A stretch of 64,000 bases of DNA. Source: Methylovulum miyakonense HT12 (GTDB taxonomy: Bacteria > Pseudomonadota > Gammaproteobacteria > Methylococcales > Methylomonadaceae). The notes beneath the pieces were generated by a model. The model had not been told where the DNA came from. It did not search any database and worked only from the letters and a program-made list of their open reading frames with translations. Each line of letters opens with the position of its first letter. Positions within the stretch are counted from its first letter, which is position 1. The position numbers and the translations under genes are program-made. This document shows, one piece after another, positions 27,566 through 37,484 of the stretch. Location: contig NZ_KB913025.1 in NCBI RefSeq assembly GCF_000384075.1, positions 2,744,450 through 2,808,449 of the forward strand. Direction: 5' to 3'.

Positions 27566-27930
27566 GTTTCGCTTCAATAGTTCAAAAAAATAGAAAATAA
27601 AATGTGATATAATTCACAAAAAATAAAATAACCCGCTCTAAGCAGCGTAGCAAATATATTGCGGCCTGTTTTTTTGTAGATGAGGCTATTTCGGATAAGC
27701 CCTTACGATATATAAAGTTTCCCATCCCAACCGGGGCATAGACAAGCCAGATACCTATGGCTTTATGTTAAGGGCAGAAGAATACAGAGGTTTTAATTAA
27801 TCTATACTACAACCAGTTTATAAAATAAGCCGTCATTGGGGGTAAAATTGCCCACCAAATTTATAATTTTTATCCGCTTAAGAAGGCAAACAAATTATCC
27901 TGGGATCATTGAATATATTAGGCAGGGCAA

Positions 27931-29049
27931 ATGATAGTTAGTCATTTAACAATCAGGTTAGTTGATTTTAGCGAATCTGAAACGGAGTATTTTTCTGCCA
28001 TCCTGTCCTTAGCCGAAGCGCGTCTGCAACAGACGTGGTCTATTGTCACGACTGAAAATGCGGATTTTTTTGTTTTAACTGAAAAACACCTAAAAGAATC
28101 CCTTCTTCCTGGTATTCCGGTGACGCGTTGTTTCTTTTATGACAGTGGCAGCACTGCCGACAACAACCATATCCTGGTTGACCATACAAAAATTCCGCGT
28201 TTACGTTCTTTAGTCGAGGTGCTTAACAAAGCCGTGGGCAGCCAGCCACCCGAAACCGCCGAAACCGCCGAAACCGCCGAAACCGCCGAAACCGCCGAAA
28301 CCGCCGAAACCGCCGAAACCGCCGAAACCGCCGAAGTTGGGCACATTGATAAAGTTCCCGAAGACGTAAATGAAATTTCTGACGTCCCCCCATCCCAGCA
28401 AGCTGCCTATATCCGGATAGAAGCGTCCCCTCCCGCAACTTCGGAAGAGGAAGCTATCGGCCCCGCTGTTTTTTCTCCGGAGCATGGGCTTTTAAAAGCG
28501 GTCCTGGACTGCAAATCCGTCCCTGTATTGATCCGGGTTAATGATGTGGGTGTGTACCTTGACCCTGTTAAGGGATCCTATTATTGCCCTTTAACGTTGG
28601 AGCAGCTTATACCTTGTTTTGACCGTGACCCAATACGCATTAAACCGATTACCCAGCCTGAACTACGGCAGGTTGTCAGCAACACGAAGTTGTCCCCTAA
28701 GCCACTGAGCAATCTGATTTGGTATGCCGCTTTTAAGGCATCCCAAGGCCGATTGCTGCTAGGCACAAGTCCTGAAGATGTTGTGCATTTGATACGTTGG
28801 CCTGATTTGGGTCTGCCCGGATGCGGCAATTACGTCAAACTGGCCGCTTTCATGCACAGCAACACCATAAAGTTGTCGGACATCCCTTCGGCAACCCAAT
28901 ATCCTGTCGAAGCTGTTTATGATTTTTATAATGCGTGCCACTTGGTTGGGCTGATCGAAAAAGCGGCGGCGATTGAACTCCACGAAAAACAGATAGATTT
29001 GGAACATCAGAACTTGCTGAGAAAAATCAGAAACCGTCTAAAATTCTGA
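27931..29049 (+). CDS. Hypothetical protein with internal (ETA)9 perfect tandem repeat. First gene of the GTPase/Roadblock/phosphatase cluster.
   Basis: No recognisable domain. Lower-GC, AT-rich 365-bp upstream region. Confidence 0.5.
   Translation: MIVSHLTIRLVDFSESETEYFSAILSLAEARLQQTWSIVTTENADFFVLTEKHLKESLLPGIPVTRCFFYDSGSTADNNHILVDHTKIPRLRSLVEVLNKAVGSQPPETAETAETAETAETAETAETAETAETAEVGHIDKVPEDVNEISDVPPSQQAAYIRIEASPPATSEEEAIGPAVFSPEHGLLKAVLDCKSVPVLIRVNDVGVYLDPVKGSYYCPLTLEQLIPCFDRDPIRIKPITQPELRQVVSNTKLSPKPLSNLIWYAAFKASQGRLLLGTSPEDVVHLIRWPDLGLPGCGNYVKLAAFMHSNTIKLSDIPSATQYPVEAVYDFYNACHLVGLIEKAAAIELHEKQIDLEHQNLLRKIRNRLKF
28252..28332 (+). repeat. Perfect 9-bp tandem repeat (gaaaccgcc) x9, in-frame, encoding ETAETAETA...
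   Basis: Counted directly: nine identical units. Confidence 0.95.
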
Positions 29050-29065
29050 AATAGGGGCTGACGTA

Positions 29066-29605
29066 ATGACTGGATTTATCCAAACCAAAATAGTGTTTAC
29101 GGGTTGTGTCGGTGCGGGAAAAACCACGGCGATCACCACCATCAGCGAAAAAACGCCCGTCTCCACTGAAGTAAAGCCATCCGAAGCCAGCGTCATCAAA
29201 CGTAAAGCCACAACGACAGTGGCGATGGATTATGGCGAGCTAACCTTAGAAGGTGGTGGGGTGCTTTATCTTTATGGGACGCCCGGGCAACGCCGCTTTG
29301 ATTTTATGACCGATATTTTGACCAAAGGCGCGTTGGGCCTGATTGTCCTCATTGACAATACCCATGAAAACCCGTTGGATGAAATGGATTATTACTTAAA
29401 TTTAAACTACCGTTTTTTGCTTAAAAGTCCGGCGGTCATTGGCATTACCCATTATGACGAAACCATGCAACCTAGCGTTGATGATTATTACTCGGCCTTG
29501 GCTGAGCGGGGTGACCCTTGGCCAGTGATCCATGTCGATGCGCGTAGTTTGGAGGATGTAAGGCTGTTACTGAATACTTTGCTGGCTATACTTGAGTATG
29601 GCTAG
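29066..29605 (+). CDS. Small Ras-like GTPase (MglA-like / COG2229 family).
   Basis: P-loop GCVGAGKTT, switch/G3 YGTPGQ, 179 aa. Confidence 0.7.
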   Translation: MTGFIQTKIVFTGCVGAGKTTAITTISEKTPVSTEVKPSEASVIKRKATTTVAMDYGELTLEGGGVLYLYGTPGQRRFDFMTDILTKGALGLIVLIDNTHENPLDEMDYYLNLNYRFLLKSPAVIGITHYDETMQPSVDDYYSALAERGDPWPVIHVDARSLEDVRLLLNTLLAILEYG

Positions 29606-29674
29606 TAGTATTTCCCATATCATTAATTTTTAATGATAATTTATGTTGTATTTTATTTTTAGGAGACGTTAGTC

Positions 29675-30082
29675 ATGGCGAAATTAGATGATATTTTACA
29701 AAGTGTTTTATCTGACGTGGAGGGTGCGCTGGGTTGTGCCGTGGTTGATTTGGAAACCGGACTACTGATTGCGGTCGCGCACAATGTGCCTTATTTCACC
29801 TCTTCTTACCTGGATGCGGTTGCGGCTGCGGCGGTGGATATGTTGCGCGGCAAAAACGTGCGGGCGGTCGAATCGCTGTTGACTACCCAGCGCGGCAAAA
29901 AAGTGGAGAAAATGATCAAGGAAGTGCAAATGACCACCGAACAGACCTTGCATTTCATGGCGACTATCCCTGAGAAGCCTGATGCTTTGGTGGTATTGAT
30001 CACCAACAGGAAAACCAACTTAGGCATGGGCTGGGCTGCGGTACGCAGAAACATGCCGTTGATTGCTCCGCTATGCCCTTAA
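29675..30082 (+). CDS. Roadblock/LC7 domain protein (MglB-like).
   Basis: 135 aa. MAKLDDILQSVLSDVEGALGCAVVDLETGLLIAV is the typical Roadblock/LC7 N-terminal pattern. Confidence 0.65.
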   Translation: MAKLDDILQSVLSDVEGALGCAVVDLETGLLIAVAHNVPYFTSSYLDAVAAAAVDMLRGKNVRAVESLLTTQRGKKVEKMIKEVQMTTEQTLHFMATIPEKPDALVVLITNRKTNLGMGWAAVRRNMPLIAPLCP

Positions 30083-30179
30083 TCCAGTAGCGTTGAGCCG
30101 TGCGGGGTACGGGGTGTGGAAATGTCTGCCCGTATCCGGCACGGCTTATGCCACCGGCTAAATGACAACTTTGTAAACT

Positions 30180-31745
30180 ATGTGGACGGTTGAAATTATC
30201 GGGGCCGTTGATGGGCGATCCCACTATGAGCTGCCTTACATCACCGGGCTTTTAGCAACGGATTTGCAGGCATTGGCTGTAGGTACCGCGTTTGTTGGCC
30301 GGCCTGGCACGCTTATCTACACGAACGCTTCCGATGTTATCAAAGTGCGTTCCGATTTGGAATTGACTGCCAGTCAAGCGCGGGCTTGGATGTGGCGGAC
30401 ATTACAAAAAGAACGGCAATTGGCAGTGCACCACCCTTTCAAAACCTGGCTGCTGATAACCGGGCAGGATGCCACCAGTCTCGTTGCGAGCATTTGCCCC
30501 CGGCTTGAACCTTTGCATATGGCCTTAAAATCGGCCAGCGAACGGCAACGTAACCTCGTTTTGCTCACTGCCGTATTTGAACTTTATTTGACGGTAGCCA
30601 AAACGGCTGGCGAGAAACTTGATGAAGGCCTGTCAAATTTTGCCGTGTCCGCAGAAGGGCAAGTTTATTATCTGGATGATGAGTATTATGCGTGGGACGG
30701 TTTTGTCGCCTTTTCGATTATGTTAGGGGTTTTTATCCGTAGTTTTATTTGGTTTGATGCCGCGTTTATTGAAGAGTTGGGCCGTAATTTGGTTAGGCTG
30801 CTGCGGGGAGTTTTTCAGGACAGCGAATGCCAGCATGTGATCGCAGGGCAATTGCAATCCATGTTTATGCCAAATGAACAAAAAGAACACTTGCTACAAC
30901 GTTTAATCAAAGTATTACAGCATCCGTCTGATGCTAAACCAACGTCCACAAGCACCTCCCTGTTATCAACGGCCGTTGCCCCCAAAGCAGCCAAACGTCA
31001 GGCTAGCGGGCGTTATCTAGCGCTTTTGGCCGACATCCATGCCAATTACCCGGCGCTCACTTGTGTGCTGGATTACCTCAAGGCCGAGCATATTAACGAA
31101 GGGATCGTGTTGGGCGATATTGTGGGTTACGGGCCTGAACCCCAAGCGTGTATTGAGCGCTTACAGGATTGCGGTTTCCAGGCCATAAAAGGCAACCACG
31201 ATTACGGTGTTGCGACTGGCGACACGGCTAAAGGTTTTTCCCGGGAGGCTAAAATGGCCATAGACTGGACGATTGGCCAGCTATCGGCTGACTATCGCCA
31301 GTGGTTAAATGATTTGCCGCTGTCTATCCAACAGGAAGATTGGTATGCGGTGCATGGGGCGCCTATGGACCCTGATTATTTTTATGCCTATGTGTATGCC
31401 ATGACTTATCAGGATAATCTTGACTATATGCAGCAAAATGGCATGGGTTTATGCTTTCATGGGCATTCGCACATACCGGGCATTTTTGCCCGCCGCAAGT
31501 ATAATGATGTACAAAAAACCGGCCAAATAATCAGTTTGGCGGCTTATCAGCAGGCCTTGGTTTGTCCAGGCTCGGTCGGGCAACCGCGTAATGGCCACAC
31601 CGACACGCAATTCGCCATTTATGACAAGGAGTTGCGGCGGGTGTCTTTTATGCAATTGCCTTATGATTATCAGTCGGTCATTGCCAAAATGCGCCAATGC
31701 CATTTACCCGAAGCGTTCGCCCTACGCATGTTACATGGCCGATAA
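30180..31745 (+). CDS. Two-domain protein: N-terminal ~270 aa unknown domain plus C-terminal calcineurin-like (PPP/ApaH-type) metallophosphoesterase.
   Basis: Phosphoesterase motifs LLADIHANYPAL (GDxHG), GDIVGYGPEP (GDxVDRG-like), GNHD, HGHSH. Confidence 0.65.
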   Translation: MWTVEIIGAVDGRSHYELPYITGLLATDLQALAVGTAFVGRPGTLIYTNASDVIKVRSDLELTASQARAWMWRTLQKERQLAVHHPFKTWLLITGQDATSLVASICPRLEPLHMALKSASERQRNLVLLTAVFELYLTVAKTAGEKLDEGLSNFAVSAEGQVYYLDDEYYAWDGFVAFSIMLGVFIRSFIWFDAAFIEELGRNLVRLLRGVFQDSECQHVIAGQLQSMFMPNEQKEHLLQRLIKVLQHPSDAKPTSTSTSLLSTAVAPKAAKRQASGRYLALLADIHANYPALTCVLDYLKAEHINEGIVLGDIVGYGPEPQACIERLQDCGFQAIKGNHDYGVATGDTAKGFSREAKMAIDWTIGQLSADYRQWLNDLPLSIQQEDWYAVHGAPMDPDYFYAYVYAMTYQDNLDYMQQNGMGLCFHGHSHIPGIFARRKYNDVQKTGQIISLAAYQQALVCPGSVGQPRNGHTDTQFAIYDKELRRVSFMQLPYDYQSVIAKMRQCHLPEAFALRMLHGR

Positions 31746-31932: not shown

Positions 31933-34041
31933 TTAAATCTTGCGTTTGACGTCAATGACATTCGACAAGCAGCCTATTTTTTTCAGGACCTTGCTTAATT
32001 GGTCGGTGTTCTTGATTTGGATGGTCAGGTTGAGTAGGGCGGAAAAATCGGCTTGGGTTTCCATCGCCGCATTGGCAATATAGATCTTCTCTTCGGCCAA
32101 AAGCTGGGACACTTCATTCAGCAGGTGTTGGGTGCTAAAGGCCTTTATGACGATCGGCACGAAATGGCTGCTGGTTTGTTTCCCCCATGCCACGCCAATC
32201 AAACGGCTTTGTTTTTCATGCCCCATATTAATGATGTTAGGGCAGTTTTTGTTATGGACGATGATGCCTTTTTTCAAGGAAATGAAACCGATGATGTCAT
32301 CGCCGGGGACAGGGCTACAGCAGCTGGCGAATGTGGTCTTGATTTGGTTGATGCCATCCACGGACACTTCCGTCTTGTCCGCCGGTTTTGCCGCCGTTTT
32401 TTTCACTTTCGCCGTTTCCAGCTCAGGAATTTTGAAAAATGCGGCAAGTTGGCGGGTATTGATGTCACCCCGGCCAATGAACTCCAGCAATTGGTCGGTA
32501 TTGGGTTGGTGGAAATACTTGGCAAGCTCGGTCAAATTGGGCGTTTTGATGCCCAGCCGTAGGCTTTCCTTATCGAGTATGGATTTTCCGGCGGCAATAT
32601 TTTGCGTTTCTTGCTGGTTTTTAAACCAGCTTTTGACTTTGCTGATGGCGTTGGATGATTTTAGGTAGCCCAGGTTAGGGTCTATCCAATTGCGGTTCGG
32701 CCCGCCTTCCTTGACGGTGAGGATTTCCACTTGCTCGCCAGATTTCAGGATATAGGTCAAGGGGGCGATACGCCCGTTGACTTTCGCGCCACGGCAACGG
32801 TGGCCTATTTCACTGTGTATCGCATAGGCGAAATCCAGCGGCGTGGAACCTTTCACCAAATCAATGAGCTTGCCTTTGGGTGTCAGCACATAGACGCGGT
32901 CATGGAACAGCTCATTACGGAAGTGTTCGCTCAGGGTTTCGTCGTCGTCTTTTTCCTCCAGCAATTTGCGCAACGAACTGATGCTTTTTTCGACGGCCGC
33001 GTCATGTTTGCCGCCTTCTTTATATGACCAATGCGCGGCAACGCCAAATTCGGCAAAATCGTGCATTTCTTGGGTGCGGATCTGCACTTCGATGCGCTTT
33101 CCGTCAGGGTCGATGATGACCGTATGCAAGGATTGGTAGCCGTTTTCCTTGGGGTTGGCGATGTAGTCGTCAAATTCTTTGGGGATGGTCTGCCACAGGC
33201 TATGGACGATGCCCAAGGTGGTGTAGCAAGCGCCCAGGTTATCGACAATCACGCGTACCGCCAAAAGGTCATAGAGCTCTTCTATGCCCAGTTGCTTGCG
33301 CTGCATTTTTTTCCAGATGCTGTAAATATGCTTGGGGCGGCCATAAATCGTCGCGCTGATGTTTTCGGCGGCGAGCGTCTTTTTTAGCAGCTCGATAAAG
33401 CGTTTGATGCAGTCTTCCCGTTCCGTGCGTTTGTCGTTCAGCGATTTGGCAATATGCAGATAGGATTGTGGCTTGAGATAACGGAAGGCCATATCCTCCA
33501 GCTCCCATTTGAGCTGGTGTATGCCCATACGGTTGGCAATAGGGGCATAAATGTCCAAGGTTTCTTGGGCGATGAAACGGCGCATTTCGTAAGATTCTTT
33601 AGGCAACACGCCCAAGCGTTTGATCCGGTAAGCCAGCTTGATCAGCACCGCCCGCACATCTTGGGTCATCGACAATAGCATCCGGCGCAGGATTTCCGAC
33701 TGGTTGGGCTGGTCGGTCATGTCCAACGAATAAATGGCGATGGTGTTGAGCCAGTTGACATCTTTGACCAGCGCCTCCACGGTTTCGCCAAACTGTTCTT
33801 TGATGTGTGGCAACAGTTTGAGCGGGGTCAGGCGCGGGTCGCTCAGGATCGCGGCCAGGATGGTGTTTAAATCGACATGGAAATCCATGAGGATGGTCGC
33901 CACTTCATAGCCTTTAGGGCGGTAATAACGCGGGTCATCGACAAGTTGCCCCACTATCGCCATGGCCTTGTCAATTTGTAGGCGGTCTGGTTCGGAAAAG
34001 TTGCCGGATAGGAGTTTTTCGGGGGTGAAATTTTTTTTCAT
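31933..34041 (-). CDS. relA: GTP pyrophosphokinase, RelA-type (p)ppGpp synthetase. The HD hydrolase motif appears degenerate.
   Basis: RRMLLSMTQDVRAVLIKLAYRI and YGRPKHIYSIWKKMQRKQL...NGYQSLHT closely match E. coli RelA. The position of the SpoT HD motif reads ILSD. Confidence 0.75.
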   Translation of the reverse strand: MKKNFTPEKLLSGNFSEPDRLQIDKAMAIVGQLVDDPRYYRPKGYEVATILMDFHVDLNTILAAILSDPRLTPLKLLPHIKEQFGETVEALVKDVNWLNTIAIYSLDMTDQPNQSEILRRMLLSMTQDVRAVLIKLAYRIKRLGVLPKESYEMRRFIAQETLDIYAPIANRMGIHQLKWELEDMAFRYLKPQSYLHIAKSLNDKRTEREDCIKRFIELLKKTLAAENISATIYGRPKHIYSIWKKMQRKQLGIEELYDLLAVRVIVDNLGACYTTLGIVHSLWQTIPKEFDDYIANPKENGYQSLHTVIIDPDGKRIEVQIRTQEMHDFAEFGVAAHWSYKEGGKHDAAVEKSISSLRKLLEEKDDDETLSEHFRNELFHDRVYVLTPKGKLIDLVKGSTPLDFAYAIHSEIGHRCRGAKVNGRIAPLTYILKSGEQVEILTVKEGGPNRNWIDPNLGYLKSSNAISKVKSWFKNQQETQNIAAGKSILDKESLRLGIKTPNLTELAKYFHQPNTDQLLEFIGRGDINTRQLAAFFKIPELETAKVKKTAAKPADKTEVSVDGINQIKTTFASCCSPVPGDDIIGFISLKKGIIVHNKNCPNIINMGHEKQSRLIGVAWGKQTSSHFVPIVIKAFSTQHLLNEVSQLLAEEKIYIANAAMETQADFSALLNLTIQIKNTDQLSKVLKKIGCLSNVIDVKRKI

Positions 34042-34283
34042 CAGATGCTGGTCACCGATTGATAAACCTTGGGGTAAATGCCTGTTGCCGTTTCTATTGC
34101 CGTCAGGTCTGGCGGGCTTCTAAAACCTGCCTGAGGGCGTTTGGGTTTACAGATAAGCTATAAACATGCCACCCATTTCGCTTGGGCTAGGGTAACCGGA
34201 CCTAACCGCTTTCATTAAGCAACCGTACAATGCCATAATAGCCGGGTTTTTCGATGCCCCAACAAACTGTAGGAAGACCGACT

Positions 34284-36098
34284 ATGAGTTCCATTTACGG
34301 TTGGCTATCCGCCACCGAGACGCCCGCTTCGGCCCGGCTGGTTGATGCCCAACGTGACGCCACCCGTGGCCTGATGGCGGGTTCGCCACAGGTTGCCCGC
34401 CATTATAAAGCCGCTGGCCTGGGCGGTCATGGCCTAATTGCCGCACCGGGCATTTATCAGGATGGTGCGTTGTTGGTGATTGTTGACGGGTCACCGCAAT
34501 GGCAAGACCCGGTTTTGGCTACTATGGCACAATCCCATGGCGATGCCTATGCCCTTGCGCAAGGTTTTCTAAGGCAAGGCCGCAAGGTGCTGGGGCAAAT
34601 GGCTGGCGCGTTTGCCGTTGGTGTGCTGCAGGCCGACCAGCATTACGCATTGCTGGCGGTGGATAGGATGGGTCTACGGCCGCTCGCTTTTTACCGGCAA
34701 GACAATTTGTTGGTTTTTGGTAGCCAACTGGAGCAATTGTTGGCCCATCCTGATGTGCGGCCGGAAATCTCCCGGCAGTCCCTCTTCGATTATTTGTATT
34801 TCCACATGGTCCCTAGCCCTGGCAGCATCTATGAAGGGATAACAAAACTACAGCCCGGCGAATTTTTGGAAGTCGGCCACAACCAAGCCACTAACGGCTA
34901 TTATTGGCAAAGGCGTTATCAGGACAGCACCGCCAGTCAGCAAGATTTGCTCGCCCAGCTTCATGGCGAACTGGAACAGGCAACAAAACAGTGCGCCCCC
35001 GACCCAAAAACCGGCGCGTTTTTAAGTGGTGGTTTGGATAGCAGCACCGTGGTCGGCGTGTTCCAAAAATTGTCCGCGCAACCTGTTGACACGTTTAGCA
35101 TCGGCTTTGCCGCCGAGGGCTATGACGAAATGGACTACGCCCGCATCACCGCCAGGCATTTTAACGCCAACTTGCATGAGTATTATGTCACGCCCGCCGA
35201 TGTCCTGGACGCGATCCCCTTGCTTGCGCAAACGTACGATGAACCGTTTGGCAATGCCTCGGCCGTGCCCGCTTATTACTGTGCAAAACTCGCCCGCGAA
35301 CACGGCATGACCCGGTTATTGGCTGGCGATGGCGGCGACGAGATTTTTGCGGGCAACGCCCGTTATGCCAAACAAAAAATTTTCGACCTGTACCGGCATG
35401 TGCCGGGGTTCGCCAAAGCCATGCTGGAGCCGGTAGCGGCTAGCTTACCGCCGTTACGTAAGGTGAAAAGCTATATCGAACAGGCCAAAATCCCCATGCC
35501 ACAACGTTTGGAAACGTATAACTTTCTGCACAGGGCCCCTCTGGAGGATATTTTTGCGCAAGACTTTCTGTCCCAGATTGACAGCGGGGCTCCCCTGGCC
35601 CAATTGCAAGCCACATACCAGCGCACCGGGGGCGATGATCTGGTCAAAAAAATGCTGTTTTTGGATAACAAATTCACGCTTGCCGATAATGATTTAAGGA
35701 AAGTCAACCGGATGTGCGATCTGGCGGGGGTCACGGTGCAATACCCTATGTTGCAGGAAAACCTAGTGGCTTTTGCCGCTTCAGTCCCTTCAAAATGGCT
35801 GATGCAAGGGTTTGAATTACGCTCTTTTTACCGTCAGGCGATGCAAGGTTTTTTGGCGAAAGAAACCTTGGCAAAAAGCAAACAGGGTTTTGGCTTGCCT
35901 TTCGGGGTCTGGATGGGCGCCGATAAAAACCTAAAAGAATTCGCCGAGGCGAATTTGCAAGGTGTGGCTAAGCGGGGTTTTTTGAATCCTGCTTACATTA
36001 AAAACCTTATCCATCTGCACCAGGATAGCCACGCCTCTTATTATGGCGTTATGATTTGGTTGTTGGTTATGTTGGAACAGTGGTTGTTGGTGCATTGA
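34284..36098 (+). CDS. Asparagine synthetase (glutamine-hydrolysing) family protein, exosortase-system-associated amidotransferase-like. The N-terminal Cys nucleophile is not evident.
   Basis: PP-loop SGGLDSS. The N-terminus MSSIYGWLS has Ser where AsnB has Cys2. Start chosen at the ATG with an AGGAAG RBS (34284); the track start is 34254. Confidence 0.6.
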   Translation: MSSIYGWLSATETPASARLVDAQRDATRGLMAGSPQVARHYKAAGLGGHGLIAAPGIYQDGALLVIVDGSPQWQDPVLATMAQSHGDAYALAQGFLRQGRKVLGQMAGAFAVGVLQADQHYALLAVDRMGLRPLAFYRQDNLLVFGSQLEQLLAHPDVRPEISRQSLFDYLYFHMVPSPGSIYEGITKLQPGEFLEVGHNQATNGYYWQRRYQDSTASQQDLLAQLHGELEQATKQCAPDPKTGAFLSGGLDSSTVVGVFQKLSAQPVDTFSIGFAAEGYDEMDYARITARHFNANLHEYYVTPADVLDAIPLLAQTYDEPFGNASAVPAYYCAKLAREHGMTRLLAGDGGDEIFAGNARYAKQKIFDLYRHVPGFAKAMLEPVAASLPPLRKVKSYIEQAKIPMPQRLETYNFLHRAPLEDIFAQDFLSQIDSGAPLAQLQATYQRTGGDDLVKKMLFLDNKFTLADNDLRKVNRMCDLAGVTVQYPMLQENLVAFAASVPSKWLMQGFELRSFYRQAMQGFLAKETLAKSKQGFGLPFGVWMGADKNLKEFAEANLQGVAKRGFLNPAYIKNLIHLHQDSHASYYGVMIWLLVMLEQWLLVH

Positions 36099-36128
36099 AA
36101 ATGAAACGGCGCAGAGGATGGGTGATAA

Positions 36129-37484
36129 GTGGGTGAGAAGAACGTTTTATTGATCATTGAAGATGACCATGGTTTGCAAACCCAATTAAAATGGGGGTTT
36201 GAACGTTACCAGACGGTCATTGCCGGCAACAGGAATGACGCGATAGTGGCGTTAAGGCGTTTTATGCCCGCAGTCATCACTCTGGATCTGGGGTTGCCGC
36301 CCGATCCTGCCAATGCCAGCGAGGGCCTTGCAACCTTGAAGGAAATCCTGCAATTGGCGCCTGCCAGTAAGGTGATTGTCGTGACCGGAAATGATGACCG
36401 CGACAATGCCGTCAGGGCGGTTGCCATGGGGGCGTATGATTTTTATCAGAAACCGATTGATTTGGATATTTTAAACCTGATTGTTGAGCGGGCTTTCCAG
36501 TTTGCCAGCTTGCAGAAAGCGTATGCCCAACTGCAGCATAAATCGCAGGAGCCTTTGGAGGGCATTATCGCTTCCTGCAAGAAGATGCAGGATTTGACGC
36601 GTATGGTGGAAAAAGTCGCCCCCACCAATGCGACAACCTTGCTGTTAGGTGAAAGCGGCACCGGCAAGGAGGTGCTCGCCAGGGCTATCCACGGCCTAAG
36701 CCACCGTGCAAGCAAGCCGTTTGTTGCCGTAAACTGTGCGGCGATCCCGGAAAACTTATTGGAAAGCGAGTTGTTCGGCTATGAAAAGGGCGCGTTTACC
36801 GGAGCCGCCCAACAAACCAAGGGCAAGATCGAATACGCCGATAAAGGCACGTTCTTTCTTGATGAGATTGGCGATTTGCCCGTTGGTTTGCAGTCGAAAT
36901 TATTGCGCTTTCTTCAGGAACGGAGCATAGAACGCATCGGCGGGCGCAAGGAAATTCCCGTTGATGTCCGTATCATTTGCGCAACCCATCAAAACTTGCA
37001 GGCCTTGATCGACGAAGGCCGGTTCAGAAGCGATTTGTACTATCGCGTCAGCGAAATCACGCTGAGTATCCCGCCCTTGCGGGAGCGTGATGGGGATGCG
37101 ATAACCATTGCCAATGTCTTGTTGAAACGCTTCAGCGAGGCCAATAATAAAATCCTGAAAGGCTTTAGCCCGGAGGCCGTGCAGGCGATAGAAAACTACC
37201 CGTGGCCCGGCAATATCCGCGAGCTGGAAAATAAAATCAAACGGGCCGTGATCATGGCGGACGATGCCGTCATTGATTTTGATGACCTTGAATTAGGTGA
37301 ACTTGGCGATGAAACCATGCCGTTTAATCTTAAAGCGGTCCGGGAAGCTGCCGAGACCACGGCTATCAAGAGGGCATTGGCCATCTCCCATAACAATATT
37401 TCTAATGCGGCAAAGCTTTTAGGTGTGACCCGCCCTACGTTGTACACCCTGTTTGAAAAGTATGGGATTAAGGTTAGCGATTAA
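36129..37484 (+). CDS. Sigma-54-dependent response regulator, PrsR-like (PEP-CTERM-box regulator).
   Basis: Receiver domain + AAA+ sigma54-interaction domain (GESGTGKE, GAFTGA) + C-terminal Fis-type HTH. LDLGLPPD is reminiscent of the PrsR family. Confidence 0.6.
   Translation: MGEKNVLLIIEDDHGLQTQLKWGFERYQTVIAGNRNDAIVALRRFMPAVITLDLGLPPDPANASEGLATLKEILQLAPASKVIVVTGNDDRDNAVRAVAMGAYDFYQKPIDLDILNLIVERAFQFASLQKAYAQLQHKSQEPLEGIIASCKKMQDLTRMVEKVAPTNATTLLLGESGTGKEVLARAIHGLSHRASKPFVAVNCAAIPENLLESELFGYEKGAFTGAAQQTKGKIEYADKGTFFLDEIGDLPVGLQSKLLRFLQERSIERIGGRKEIPVDVRIICATHQNLQALIDEGRFRSDLYYRVSEITLSIPPLRERDGDAITIANVLLKRFSEANNKILKGFSPEAVQAIENYPWPGNIRELENKIKRAVIMADDAVIDFDDLELGELGDETMPFNLKAVREAAETTAIKRALAISHNNISNAAKLLGVTRPTLYTLFEKYGIKVSD

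Follow-up and report, generated by a model that had tools for sequence, protein, structure and literature searches.

The window analysed here is a stretch of 64,000 nucleotides from Methylovulum miyakonense HT12. It carries four co-directional open reading frames, p1 to p4, all of them present on the forward strand as a preliminary description of the sequence had proposed (Table 1). The four genes are separated in turn by 16, 69 and 97 nt and are preceded by a leader whose AT-richness, likewise part of that description, was confirmed against flanks with a GC content of about 0.50. In most of the gammaproteobacterial orthologous loci checked, the 400 nt located 5' of p1 are similarly AT-rich (GC 0.28-0.48), the exceptions being Thioalkalivibrio (0.62) and, in another phylum, Nitrospira (0.52-0.54). 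An Rfam search of the leader returned no family of note, and sigma-70-like sites showed no excess over shuffled sequence. A sigma-54-like TGG-N8-TTGC at 27837-27851 was rejected as a chance match because it is absent from 31 orthologous leaders. When all four proteins were searched against Pfam, p2 and the C-terminal half of p4 scored above threshold, and p1 and p3 had no match.

Table 1. Features of the four-gene locus and its leader, in window coordinates.
Feature	Position	Strand	Description
AT-rich intergenic leader of p1	27566..27930	+	GC 0.35-0.39; promoter region presumed
p1 ORF	27931-29049	+	372 aa; 'DUF' protein of Group 3 MglA systems
p1 N-terminal receiver-fold domain	27931..28245	+	residues 1-105; pseudo-receiver in this lineage
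9-bp perfect tandem repeat CCGAAACCG x 9.6	28250..28335	+	encodes (ETA)9; TRF 100% matches
p1 conserved C-terminal domain	28477..29046	+	residues 183-372; pLDDT about 90
p2 ORF	29066-29605	+	179 aa; MglA-family small GTPase
p3 ORF	29675-30082	+	135 aa; divergent Roadblock-superfamily (MglC-like) protein
p4 ORF	30180-31745	+	521 aa; predicted kinase-like domain and metallophosphoesterase
p4 N-terminal domain	30180..30932	+	residues 1-251; predicted protein-kinase-like fold, sequence-orphan family
p4 disordered interdomain linker	30933..31004	+	residues 252-275; pLDDT <50
p4 C-terminal calcineurin-superfamily metallophosphoesterase	31005..31745	+	residues 276-521; 3rqz/1nnw/SapH-like

The p2 protein belongs to the MglA family of small GTPases and is of the Group 2-5 type; its gene context assigns it to Group 3. 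It is matched by Pfam ATP_bind_1 (E=3.8e-12; 47 bits, cut-off 27), and the Ras/MglA-like motifs pointed out earlier are indeed present, with GCVGAGKTT as G1 and YGTPGQ as G3, in a single-domain protein whose length lies within the 240 aa or less of the family. The G2 region, KATTTVAMD, contains TTT without an arginine finger, and the consensus of the family reads TTVAmdYGe...lYGTPGQrRf. The signature of Groups 2-5 MglA proteins is a GTPGQ G3 motif together with a Thr that replaces the intrinsic Arg beside the G2 threonine (PMC4316618). Sec4 and MglA headed the PDB sequence matches to p2 (E about 1e-3), and its identity to Neisseria and actinobacterial homologues is about equal, at 39-42%.

The p1 protein is the DUF of the Group 3 MglA system. 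It had been taken for a domain-less, scaffold-like protein with an (ETA)9 repeat; the length, the repeat and the lack of a Pfam match all held, but the AF2 model (mean pLDDT 78.5) resolves a receiver-fold N-terminal domain and a conserved C-terminal domain joined by a variable linker. The N-terminus has the CheY-like fold of a response-regulator receiver domain, and Thr50 occupies the site of the phospho-acceptor Asp that closes beta3. In close homologues from Methylococcales this site is taken by L, K, P, S or N, and the Asp is mostly retained in convergent-type and Nitrospira p1 homologues. The (ETA)9 tract sits within the disordered and poorly conserved linker (residues about 106-177, pLDDT <50 in the AF2 model), which varies in length and composition across 31 homologues. 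Two independent short-read contigs, L001 and L003, both terminate within the array. Further downstream, the C-terminal domain contains a winged-helix-like three-helix segment, a conserved basic C-terminal helix and the invariant residues W264, G273, P291 and F332-Y333-N334; wHTH families matched this domain below threshold only, and a Foldseek search of it against the PDB gave nothing significant. The p1 HMM also matched the ORFs immediately 5' of the N. gonorrhoeae Group 3 GTPase (E=4.5e-7).

Profile comparisons support the placement of p3 in the Roadblock superfamily, at that level only. The original assignment to Roadblock/LC7 therefore survives in part: the Pfam Roadblock model (Robl_LC7, PF03259) gave nothing with p3 at any E<=1 and matched only one of 45 family members (E=0.25), and the p3 family profile (A6) had MglC (7ct3) as its best PDB match at E=3.8e-6, followed by five matches that were all MglB or Roadblock chains (E=0.13-1.3). 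The hhalign comparison of the p3 family with the canonical Roadblock family extended over the full length (120 columns, E=8e-4), with a probability of only 24%. p3 is strongly conserved, with a mean identity of 68% to the window protein over 63 homologues that include Nitrospira. Its invariant D25 and G29 lie three residues apart, so there is no adjacent Asp-Gly pair of the kind conserved in MglBs that go with Group 2-5 MglA (PMC4316618). The canonical Roadblock paralogue of other loci has such a pair (D33-G34), and its family in related loci matches LAMTOR2 at about 1e-4. Many related loci include a canonical MglB, which this window lacks, the divergent MglC-like gene being its only Roadblock gene.

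The arrangement p1-p2-p3 is the "Group 3 MglA system" already catalogued in 2014 by Wuichet & Søgaard-Andersen. These systems, organized as DUF>MglA>MglB(>MglB), are found in beta- and gammaproteobacteria, and the supplement has Methylococcales entries of this organization, one from Methylomonas methanica (179 aa) and one from Methylomicrobium alcaliphilum (PMC4316618), which refutes the idea that the GTPase system itself was undescribed. The gene order p1>p2>p3 is the same; p2 is like the Group 3 GTPase (~175-188 aa, GTPGQ, no arginine finger), and p1 is like the Group 3 DUF, with its receiver-like N-domain, variable linker and winged-helix-like C-region (PMC4316618). Unlike the Group 3 description, the locus has the MglC-like Roadblock protein in place of a canonical MglB, and it adds p4, whereas that description has no fourth component and the word 'phosphatase' appears nowhere in it (PMC4316618). 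The only experiment for any Group 3 system concerns an orphan mglB of Snodgrassella, which gave a colonisation and motility phenotype (PMC11112851).

The fourth protein joins two domains. Residues 280-482 of p4 pass both Pfam Metallophos_2 and Metallophos with conserved metal-ligand motifs, and the metal ligands are all invariant among homologues. The C-terminal half is thus calcineurin-like, as first described, but we rejected its designation as a PPP-family Ser/Thr phosphatase: its motifs (LADIHAN, GDIVGYGP, GNHD) depart from the PPP signature (GDxHG, GDxVDRG, GNHE), and it stays below the cut-offs of the NCBIfam bacterial PPP models PRK11439 (17.9 bits; cut-off 326) and PRK09968 (12.9 bits; cut-off 332). 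The N-terminal domain, said to match nothing recognisable, is still an orphan by sequence, since no kinase Pfam family matched the 45 p4 members at E<=1 and its profile retrieved no PDB entry at E<=10. Its predicted structure, by contrast, is protein-kinase-like, being bilobal with a beta3 Lys, an alphaC Glu, an Asp-x4-Asn and a Mg-binding Asp ~13 residues on. None of these catalytic residues varies among 45 homologues that were collected independently, and K55 and E78 are invariant in 76 sequences gathered with search patterns in which neither residue took part. The kinase-like assignment is a prediction based on this modelled structure and on motif spacing. The p4 model has a mean pLDDT of 88.7 and a pTM of 0.53, with the relative orientation of the two domains undefined. 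In structural comparison the N-domain came closest to minimal kinase-like folds of the Bud32/RIO/WaaP type and the C-terminal domain to 3rqz/SapH-type metallophosphoesterases, and the catalytic residues follow the order and spacing expected. By sequence, the p4 N-domain belongs to no Pfam kinase family. Neither a fusion of these two fold types nor the linkage of such a fusion to a GTPase cassette was found in the literature searched.

A survey of gene neighbourhoods bore out the proposal of a conserved, linked module and indicates that p4 is an accessory to the GTPase cassette. At least one module partner lies within 7 kb of p4 in 61 of 80 p4 loci, p3 is no more than 1 kb away in 54, and p1, p2 and p3 are present together in 32. 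Conversely, when p1 served as the anchor, p4 sequence lay downstream in all three look-ups. The clades of the p4 tree track the type of neighbourhood. Since p4 is missing from the Group 3 loci of Neisseria and Ralstonia, it is not core to the Group 3 system. The novelty lies in the conserved coupling between this kinase-like/phosphoesterase protein and the cassette; p4 is apparently undescribed, and no published account of its link to the Group 3 cassette was found in the literature searched.

Building on the gene order, the domain identities, the intact catalytic residues and the conserved genomic linkage, we propose that a Group 3 MglA-type GTPase cassette has been extended by a dedicated bifunctional enzyme, a reading that we consider probable by a small measure. 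In this model p2 would be a GTP/GDP switch and p3, probably dimeric, would serve as its regulatory platform, acting as a GAP or as a GAP co-factor. p1 would be an adaptor in which a flexible linker connects a pseudo-receiver to a winged-helix-like C-domain. p4 would dock on the p3/p2 complex, where its kinase-like and metallophosphoesterase domains could write and erase one phosphate mark on a component of the module, with p1 as the prime candidate, or on a downstream target. The nucleotide state of p2 would set the balance between the kinase and phosphatase activities of p4, and the GTPase cycle would thereby become a phosphorylation state. Since the conserved p4 joins a kinase-like domain to a phosphatase, the GTPase switch may control a phosphorylation step. 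We infer the physical contacts, both enzymatic activities of p4, its substrate and the direction of signalling, which makes p4 an output of the module and not an input.

Group 3 MglA systems are found in many proteobacteria, including Neisseria, Xanthomonas, Stenotrophomonas and Acinetobacter, and are still without a known output, for which p4, with two predicted opposing catalytic domains that are both intact, offers a testable handle. Its N-domain would also add a kinase-like family that is invisible to sequence searches. A broader claim, which we hold as tentative and somewhat doubtful, is that p4 founds a hitherto unrecognised family of GTPase-coupled bifunctional kinase/phosphatases that MglC-like Roadblock proteins recruit and MglA-type GTPases switch, most of its members coming from methanotrophs, large sulfur bacteria and Nitrospira, which live at oxic-anoxic interfaces. 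Bacteria would then have a counterpart to the eukaryotic arrangement in which a Roadblock scaffold and a small GTPase control a kinase. In Ragulator (LAMTOR2/3, MP1-p14), Roadblock-fold dimers are platforms that join Rags with kinases (MEK/ERK, mTORC1). The likeness to our locus is one of logic only and implies no orthology; by this analogy, the platform-kinase pairing of eukaryotic Ragulator/MAPK scaffolds may extend to bacteria. Should p4 be inactive or unconnected, the locus would be another instance of a catalogued cassette.

The same cassette could instead direct p4 at a small molecule, such as a nucleotide or dinucleotide polyphosphate, a sugar or a lipid head group, in which case the GTPase module would control a metabolite or second-messenger pool. 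The closest folds of p4 are the sugar kinase WaaP, the atypical ATPase/kinase Bud32 and the Ap4A hydrolase/phosphodiesterase SapH, and its substrate could therefore be of this kind. However, fold neighbours at 10-30% identity cannot settle the class of substrate, and no metabolic genes are conserved beside p4, its conserved partners all being signalling proteins, so we regard this alternative as rather unlikely. The N-domain might also be a non-catalytic, nucleotide-binding docking pseudokinase that tethers the phosphoesterase, then the sole catalytic part, to the Roadblock/GTPase complex. Bud32, RIO and other minimal kinase-like folds often work as ATPases or switches, and the domain has no detectable sequence kinship to active kinase families. 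Pseudokinases, though, usually lose the Lys, Glu, Asp and Asn catalytic residues, whose invariance among p4 homologues makes this explanation clearly unlikely.

We give little credence to a wholly undescribed four-gene system akin to the Myxococcus MglA/MglB switch or the Streptomyces conservon. The pairing of a GTPase with a Roadblock protein is real, and the Group 3 mgl locus of Snodgrassella has been linked to spreading that depends on type IV pili (PMC11112851), but p1-p2-p3 falls within the Group 3 catalogue. The Myxococcus xanthus MglA/MglB/MglC/RomR module likewise has a small Ras-like GTPase and regulators of Roadblock fold, together with a protein that carries a receiver domain and a disordered linker; MglC is the best solved relative of p3, and RomR resembles p1 in layout alone. 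In contrast to p2, Myxococcus MglA has the intrinsic arginine finger and the TVPGQ motif of Group 1; its polarity genes are not clustered with their partners (PMC4316618), whereas p1 to p4 adjoin, and the polarity module has no known kinase/phosphatase component comparable to p4. The conservon likewise consists of four genes (CvnA-D) and shares a Roadblock protein (CvnB) and an ATP_bind_1-type GTPase (CvnD), p2 being ~39-42% identical to actinobacterial 'ATP/GTP-binding proteins'. Unlike the conservon, the p1-p4 cassette has no membrane histidine-kinase-like CvnA and no DUF742 CvnC (among 31 p1 homologues, DUF742 gave a single match, with E=0.13), and its fourth gene encodes a soluble predicted kinase-like/phosphoesterase fusion. 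Defence systems include small NTPases with attached effector enzymes, a layout compatible with an anti-phage or other mobile conflict system. This explanation is hardly credible: PADLOC was empty save for one weak P-loop match of p2 (VakA, E=0.0057, 24 residues), no mobile-element genes lie beside the locus, its base composition equals that of the flanks, a search of 72,556 plasmid records yielded no full-length p4, and the cassette is widely conserved across Methylococcales. The extension of the Group 3 cassette by p4 would, finally, be illusory if p4 were a mere neighbour, functionally untied to the GTPase. In 19 of the 80 loci p4 has no partner nearby (with 5 kb or more to either side in 10 of these), and some Group 3 loci lack p4. 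We nevertheless find this very improbable, since the adjacency persists through rearrangement, in colinear and convergent arrangements and as p1>p3>p4 in Marinobacterium, where the GTPase gene is missing. It also spans two phyla (Gammaproteobacteria and Nitrospira) and differing flanks, the genes outside p1-p4 varying even among Methylovulum species, and in a second lineage of p4 paralogues the neighbours are once more p3-like genes and MglA-like GTPase fusions.

The four co-directional ORFs placed in this region by the preliminary description are all present (table below), with intergenic gaps of 16, 69 and 97 nt between p1/p2, p2/p3 and p3/p4. The leader preceding p1 is AT-rich, as had been noted, with a GC content of 0.35-0.39 compared to ~0.50 in its surroundings, and the (ETA)9 stretch of p1 is indeed encoded by a perfect 9-bp tandem repeat of 9.6 copies. 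An Rfam search of the leader returned noise only and no RNA element. A sigma-54-like TGG-N8-TTGC match lies in the leader, but a sigma-54 promoter was rejected: the match is missing from 31 orthologous leaders, the background is 0.035 per 550 nt, and we treated it as a chance match. The genes around the module are of housekeeping type, with, on the 5' side, an inositol-monophosphatase-like gene and, on the opposite strand, cysE-like and trmJ-like genes (identified by eye), and a convergent relA 3' of p4 (Pfam annotation). Beyond the convergent relA, the identical contig L001 carries, according to Pfam, an asparagine-synthase-family gene and a sigma-54-dependent response regulator; none of the three is kept beside the module in other genomes. 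PADLOC gave nothing apart from a single weak P-loop match of p2 to VakA (E = 0.0057), and a defence system was discarded on this basis.

Coordinates of the module, its leader and related features in the window and in other loci (L numbers)
Feature	Locus	Coordinates	Strand	Size
Leader	window	27566-27930		
TGG-N8-TTGC match	window	27837-27851		
p1	window	27931-29049	+	372 aa ORF
9-bp array in p1	window	28250-28335		
p2	window	29066-29605	+	179 aa ORF
p3	window	29675-30082	+	135 aa ORF
p4	window	30180-31745	+	521 aa ORF
Genes beyond module	window	31933-37484		
Assembly ends inside array	L001; L003	1-30; 1-35		
Canonical Roadblock gene (L007, L009: with longer p2 paralogue), other Methylovulum	L007; L009; L010	3554-4731; 6058-7126; 6164-6523	-; -; -	
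Longer p1 paralogue	L015; L014; L018; L020; L021; L062	11520-12845; 11490-12719; 11580-12770; 11533-12825; 2316-3479; 11571-12782		387-441 aa
Nitrospira receiver-GTPase fusion	L058; L059; L066; L079	7981-8982; 7934-8956; 7916-8956; 1489-2496		
c8, long forms	L023; L030; L079	8022-9938; 2838-4484; 6901-8535		
c8, long forms	L032; L044	7526-9679; 185-3082	-; -	
c8, short forms	L026; L045	9258-9977; 7095-7808		
Decayed module copies	L086; L091; L092	9534-11460; 9666-10977; 3858-5530		
Two-globin protein	L022; L058; L079	8224-9186; 12772-13788; 9880-10869		
Two-globin protein	L082; L089	11565-12479; 7414-8310	-; -	
Two-globin protein	six more loci			

The assignment of p2 as a Ras-like GTPase was borne out by Pfam ATP_bind_1 (E = 3.8e-12), a family that also takes in the CvnD-type GTPases of conservons; among solved proteins, Sec4 and MglA came closest to p2 in sequence (~1e-3). 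Prokaryotic MglA homologues have been divided into five groups (Wuichet & Søgaard-Andersen 2014, PMC4316618). In that study, GTPGQ in G3 and a threonine replacing the Group 1 arginine finger are common to Groups 2-5. Group 3 is almost confined to beta- and gammaproteobacteria, and in its unknown protein a variable linker lies between two conserved terminal regions, which Phyre2 predicted to be receiver-like (N-terminal) and winged-helix-like (C-terminal). Methylomonas methanica (179 aa GTPase) and Methylomicrobium alcaliphilum both have DUF>MglA>MglB>MglB entries in the supplement. p2 carries the motifs YGTPGQ and TTT. We conclude that p1-p3 are an already known Group 3 MglA system. The preliminary description had called the whole arrangement undescribed; this does not hold for p1-p3 but may hold for p4, as open-access papers and preprints yielded no account of a p4-type protein or of a tie between such a protein and MglA modules. 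The only related experimental hint to a role comes from Snodgrassella, a carrier of a Group 3 locus, whose orphan mglB has a type IV pilus and colonisation phenotype (PMC11112851).

The calcineurin-like character of the C-terminal half of p4 was confirmed, as residues 280-482 passed Metallophos_2 and Metallophos and the best solved relative was 3rqz (E = 9.3e-35). The protein is not of the PPP type, as had been proposed: it has DIHAN, GDIVGYGP and GNHD instead of PPP motifs, and curated PPP models scored far below threshold. The N-terminal domain proved as unrecognisable by sequence as claimed, with no match of Pfam kinase families to 45 p4 members and nothing found in the PDB by its profile, but its predicted structure is kinase-like (AF2 model of p4, pLDDT 88.7, with residues 252-275 as a disordered linker). 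p4 is 100% identical to an NCBI protein of Methylovulum miyakonense, the source of the window, and Methylococcales and other taxa have many full-length homologues. Across 45 of these, the N-terminal half shows strong conservation and K55, E78, D148, N153 and D166/D167 are invariant, with a spacing that fits a protein-kinase catalytic core. All metal ligands, K55 and E78 are also invariant in 76 genomic homologues. In that set D148, N153 and D166/D167 had been part of the search patterns, which accounts for some of their invariance; the set of 45 is free of this bias. As modelled, p4 is thus a fusion of a predicted kinase-like domain and a phosphoesterase.

The claim that p3 is a Roadblock/LC7 protein failed in Pfam (no match at E<=1) but stood at the profile level. 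A narrow p3-family profile matched MglC at E = 7.9e-4, and a broader profile, built from exhaustive-search matches, at E = 3.8e-6, its five other matches all being MglB/Roadblock chains. The p3 family also aligned over its full length with c5, the canonical Roadblock family of related loci (hhalign, E = 8e-4, low probability), which itself matches 7f8m and CvnB5 (1e-20 to 1e-10). In many loci c5 lies between p2 and p3; it is absent from the window, which therefore holds only the MglC-like second 'MglB'. Mean identity to the window protein is 68% for p3 (63 homologues), 56% for p2, 45% for p4 and 26% for p1, which makes p3 unusually conserved.

Elsewhere, the p3-type domain occurs as the C-terminal module of response regulators with a receiver and DUF4388, which we take to be the PATAN domain, and as the N-terminal module of ankyrin-repeat proteins (P0153, P0156, P0162, P0165, P0227, P0236). 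These fusions suggest that the domain is a portable interaction module. The four-gene module of three other Methylovulum genomes has a canonical Roadblock gene at its side, which at L007 and L009 is paired with a longer second p2 paralogue (249-253 aa); at L010 the contig stops just past the Roadblock gene. No such pair was found within the 64-kb window.

p1 matched nothing in Pfam at E<=1, and a profile search for a deeper alignment returned 20 proteins only, its low-complexity linker probably having dominated the word filter. Its C-terminal helix is conserved and basic; a membrane-targeting amphipathic helix was unsupported, the hydrophobic moment not exceeding that of shuffles (mean z = 0.49). 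The repeats of the 9-bp array are 100% matches, and every independent short-read assembly of the locus (two SRA runs, JGI metagenome) stops inside it, which together suggest that the copy number is heterogeneous or that the p1 linker is prone to slippage and varies in length in frame. Some Methylococcaceae carry a second, longer p1 paralogue directly 3' of p4; the window lacks it and has the convergent relA in this place. In Nitrospira the GTPase is joined directly to the receiver-like N-domain of p1, and not to its C-domain as first thought; the acceptor-position Asp is kept and the C-domain is missing. This fusion ties the receiver-like domain to the GTPase and parallels a 444-aa Xanthomonas entry (PMC4316618 supplement).

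Linkage of p4 to the module was surveyed with one genome per species. The scan gave 179 loci with p4 relatives, 80 of which were retained and their ORFs searched with iterated HMMs; they come from Methylococcales, Thiotrichaceae, Beggiatoa, Thiomargarita, Marithrix, Marinobacterium, Marinobacter, Thioalkalivibrio, Competibacteraceae and Nitrospira. The expected conserved linkage was found, in several arrangements, with at least one partner near p4 in 61/80 loci: p3 within 1 kb in 54, p1 and p2 within 7 kb in 44 and 34, respectively, and all three together in 32. The remaining 19 p4 genes are partnerless; for 10 of these, mostly from large sulfur bacteria, the sequence extends 5 kb or more in both directions. 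The window's arrangement, p1>p2>(c5>)p3>p4 (type A), recurs in Methylococcales, Pontibacterium, other gammaproteobacteria and Nitrospira. In type B, p1>p2>c5>p3 is convergent with p4 (Thiotrichaceae, Marithrix, Thioalkalivibrio, Competibacteraceae, Marinobacter); type C, p1>p3>p4, is without p2 (nine Marinobacterium loci); type D is p3>(p3')>c8>p4 (a second paralogue lineage of Methylococcales); and in type E c8 is divergent from p4 (Thiomargarita, Beggiatoa, Thioploca). In the p4 tree, clades correspond to these types, and Methylovulum species differ in the genes bordering the module. Look-ups anchored on p1 found p4 sequence downstream in 3/3 cases, one intact and two decayed. By contrast, p4 is missing from the loci of N. 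gonorrhoeae and Ralstonia, and no full-length copy was found in a plasmid collection; only some of these modules thus have p4 as an accessory. A phosphoesterase beside 'GTP-binding proteins' on a Dolichospermum plasmid is unrelated: its cluster also has FolE and a ThrRS paralogue and is thus presumably a zinc-starvation cluster with COG0523-type proteins.

We infer the contacts among p1-p4, the activities and substrate of p4 and the direction of signalling as follows: p2 would be the nucleotide switch, p3 a Roadblock-type regulator, p1 an adaptor and p4 an enzyme with two opposing activities, kinase and phosphatase, both intact. The GTPase state of p2, read via p3, would set the kinase/phosphatase balance of p4, which would act either on a component of the module or on a target downstream of it. 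The main alternative is that p4 acts on a small molecule, as suggested by WaaP and SapH among its fold neighbours.

A second gene family, c8, lies beside p4 paralogues. Its long forms start with a Group 1-like MglA/Arf-like GTPase domain (GRT, VPGQ) followed by a ~240-aa domain; the 237-aa forms consist of the latter alone, and our initial count of all c8 neighbours as GTPases was wrong. By eye the ~240-aa domain has a kinase-catalytic-loop-like stretch; its homology to the p4 N-domain was unsupported (hhalign, E = 0.076, probability 0.7%). Decayed module copies also occur. In one Thiotrichaceae lineage p4 is split, and p3 is gone together with half of the canonical Roadblock gene; a Methylococcales-like contig has a frameshifted p3 and a p4 reduced to its kinase-like half. 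In an N. gonorrhoeae record, frameshifts that may be real or a sequencing artefact break the p1- and p2-like genes. Since most p4 carriers live at oxic-anoxic interfaces, a link of p4 modules to O2/NO sensing is conceivable. In 11 loci, belonging to Nitrospira, Pontibacterium, Methyloprofundus and other gammaproteobacteria, a two-globin protein (Globin + Bac_globin) is encoded no more than 10 kb from p4; the window does not have it.
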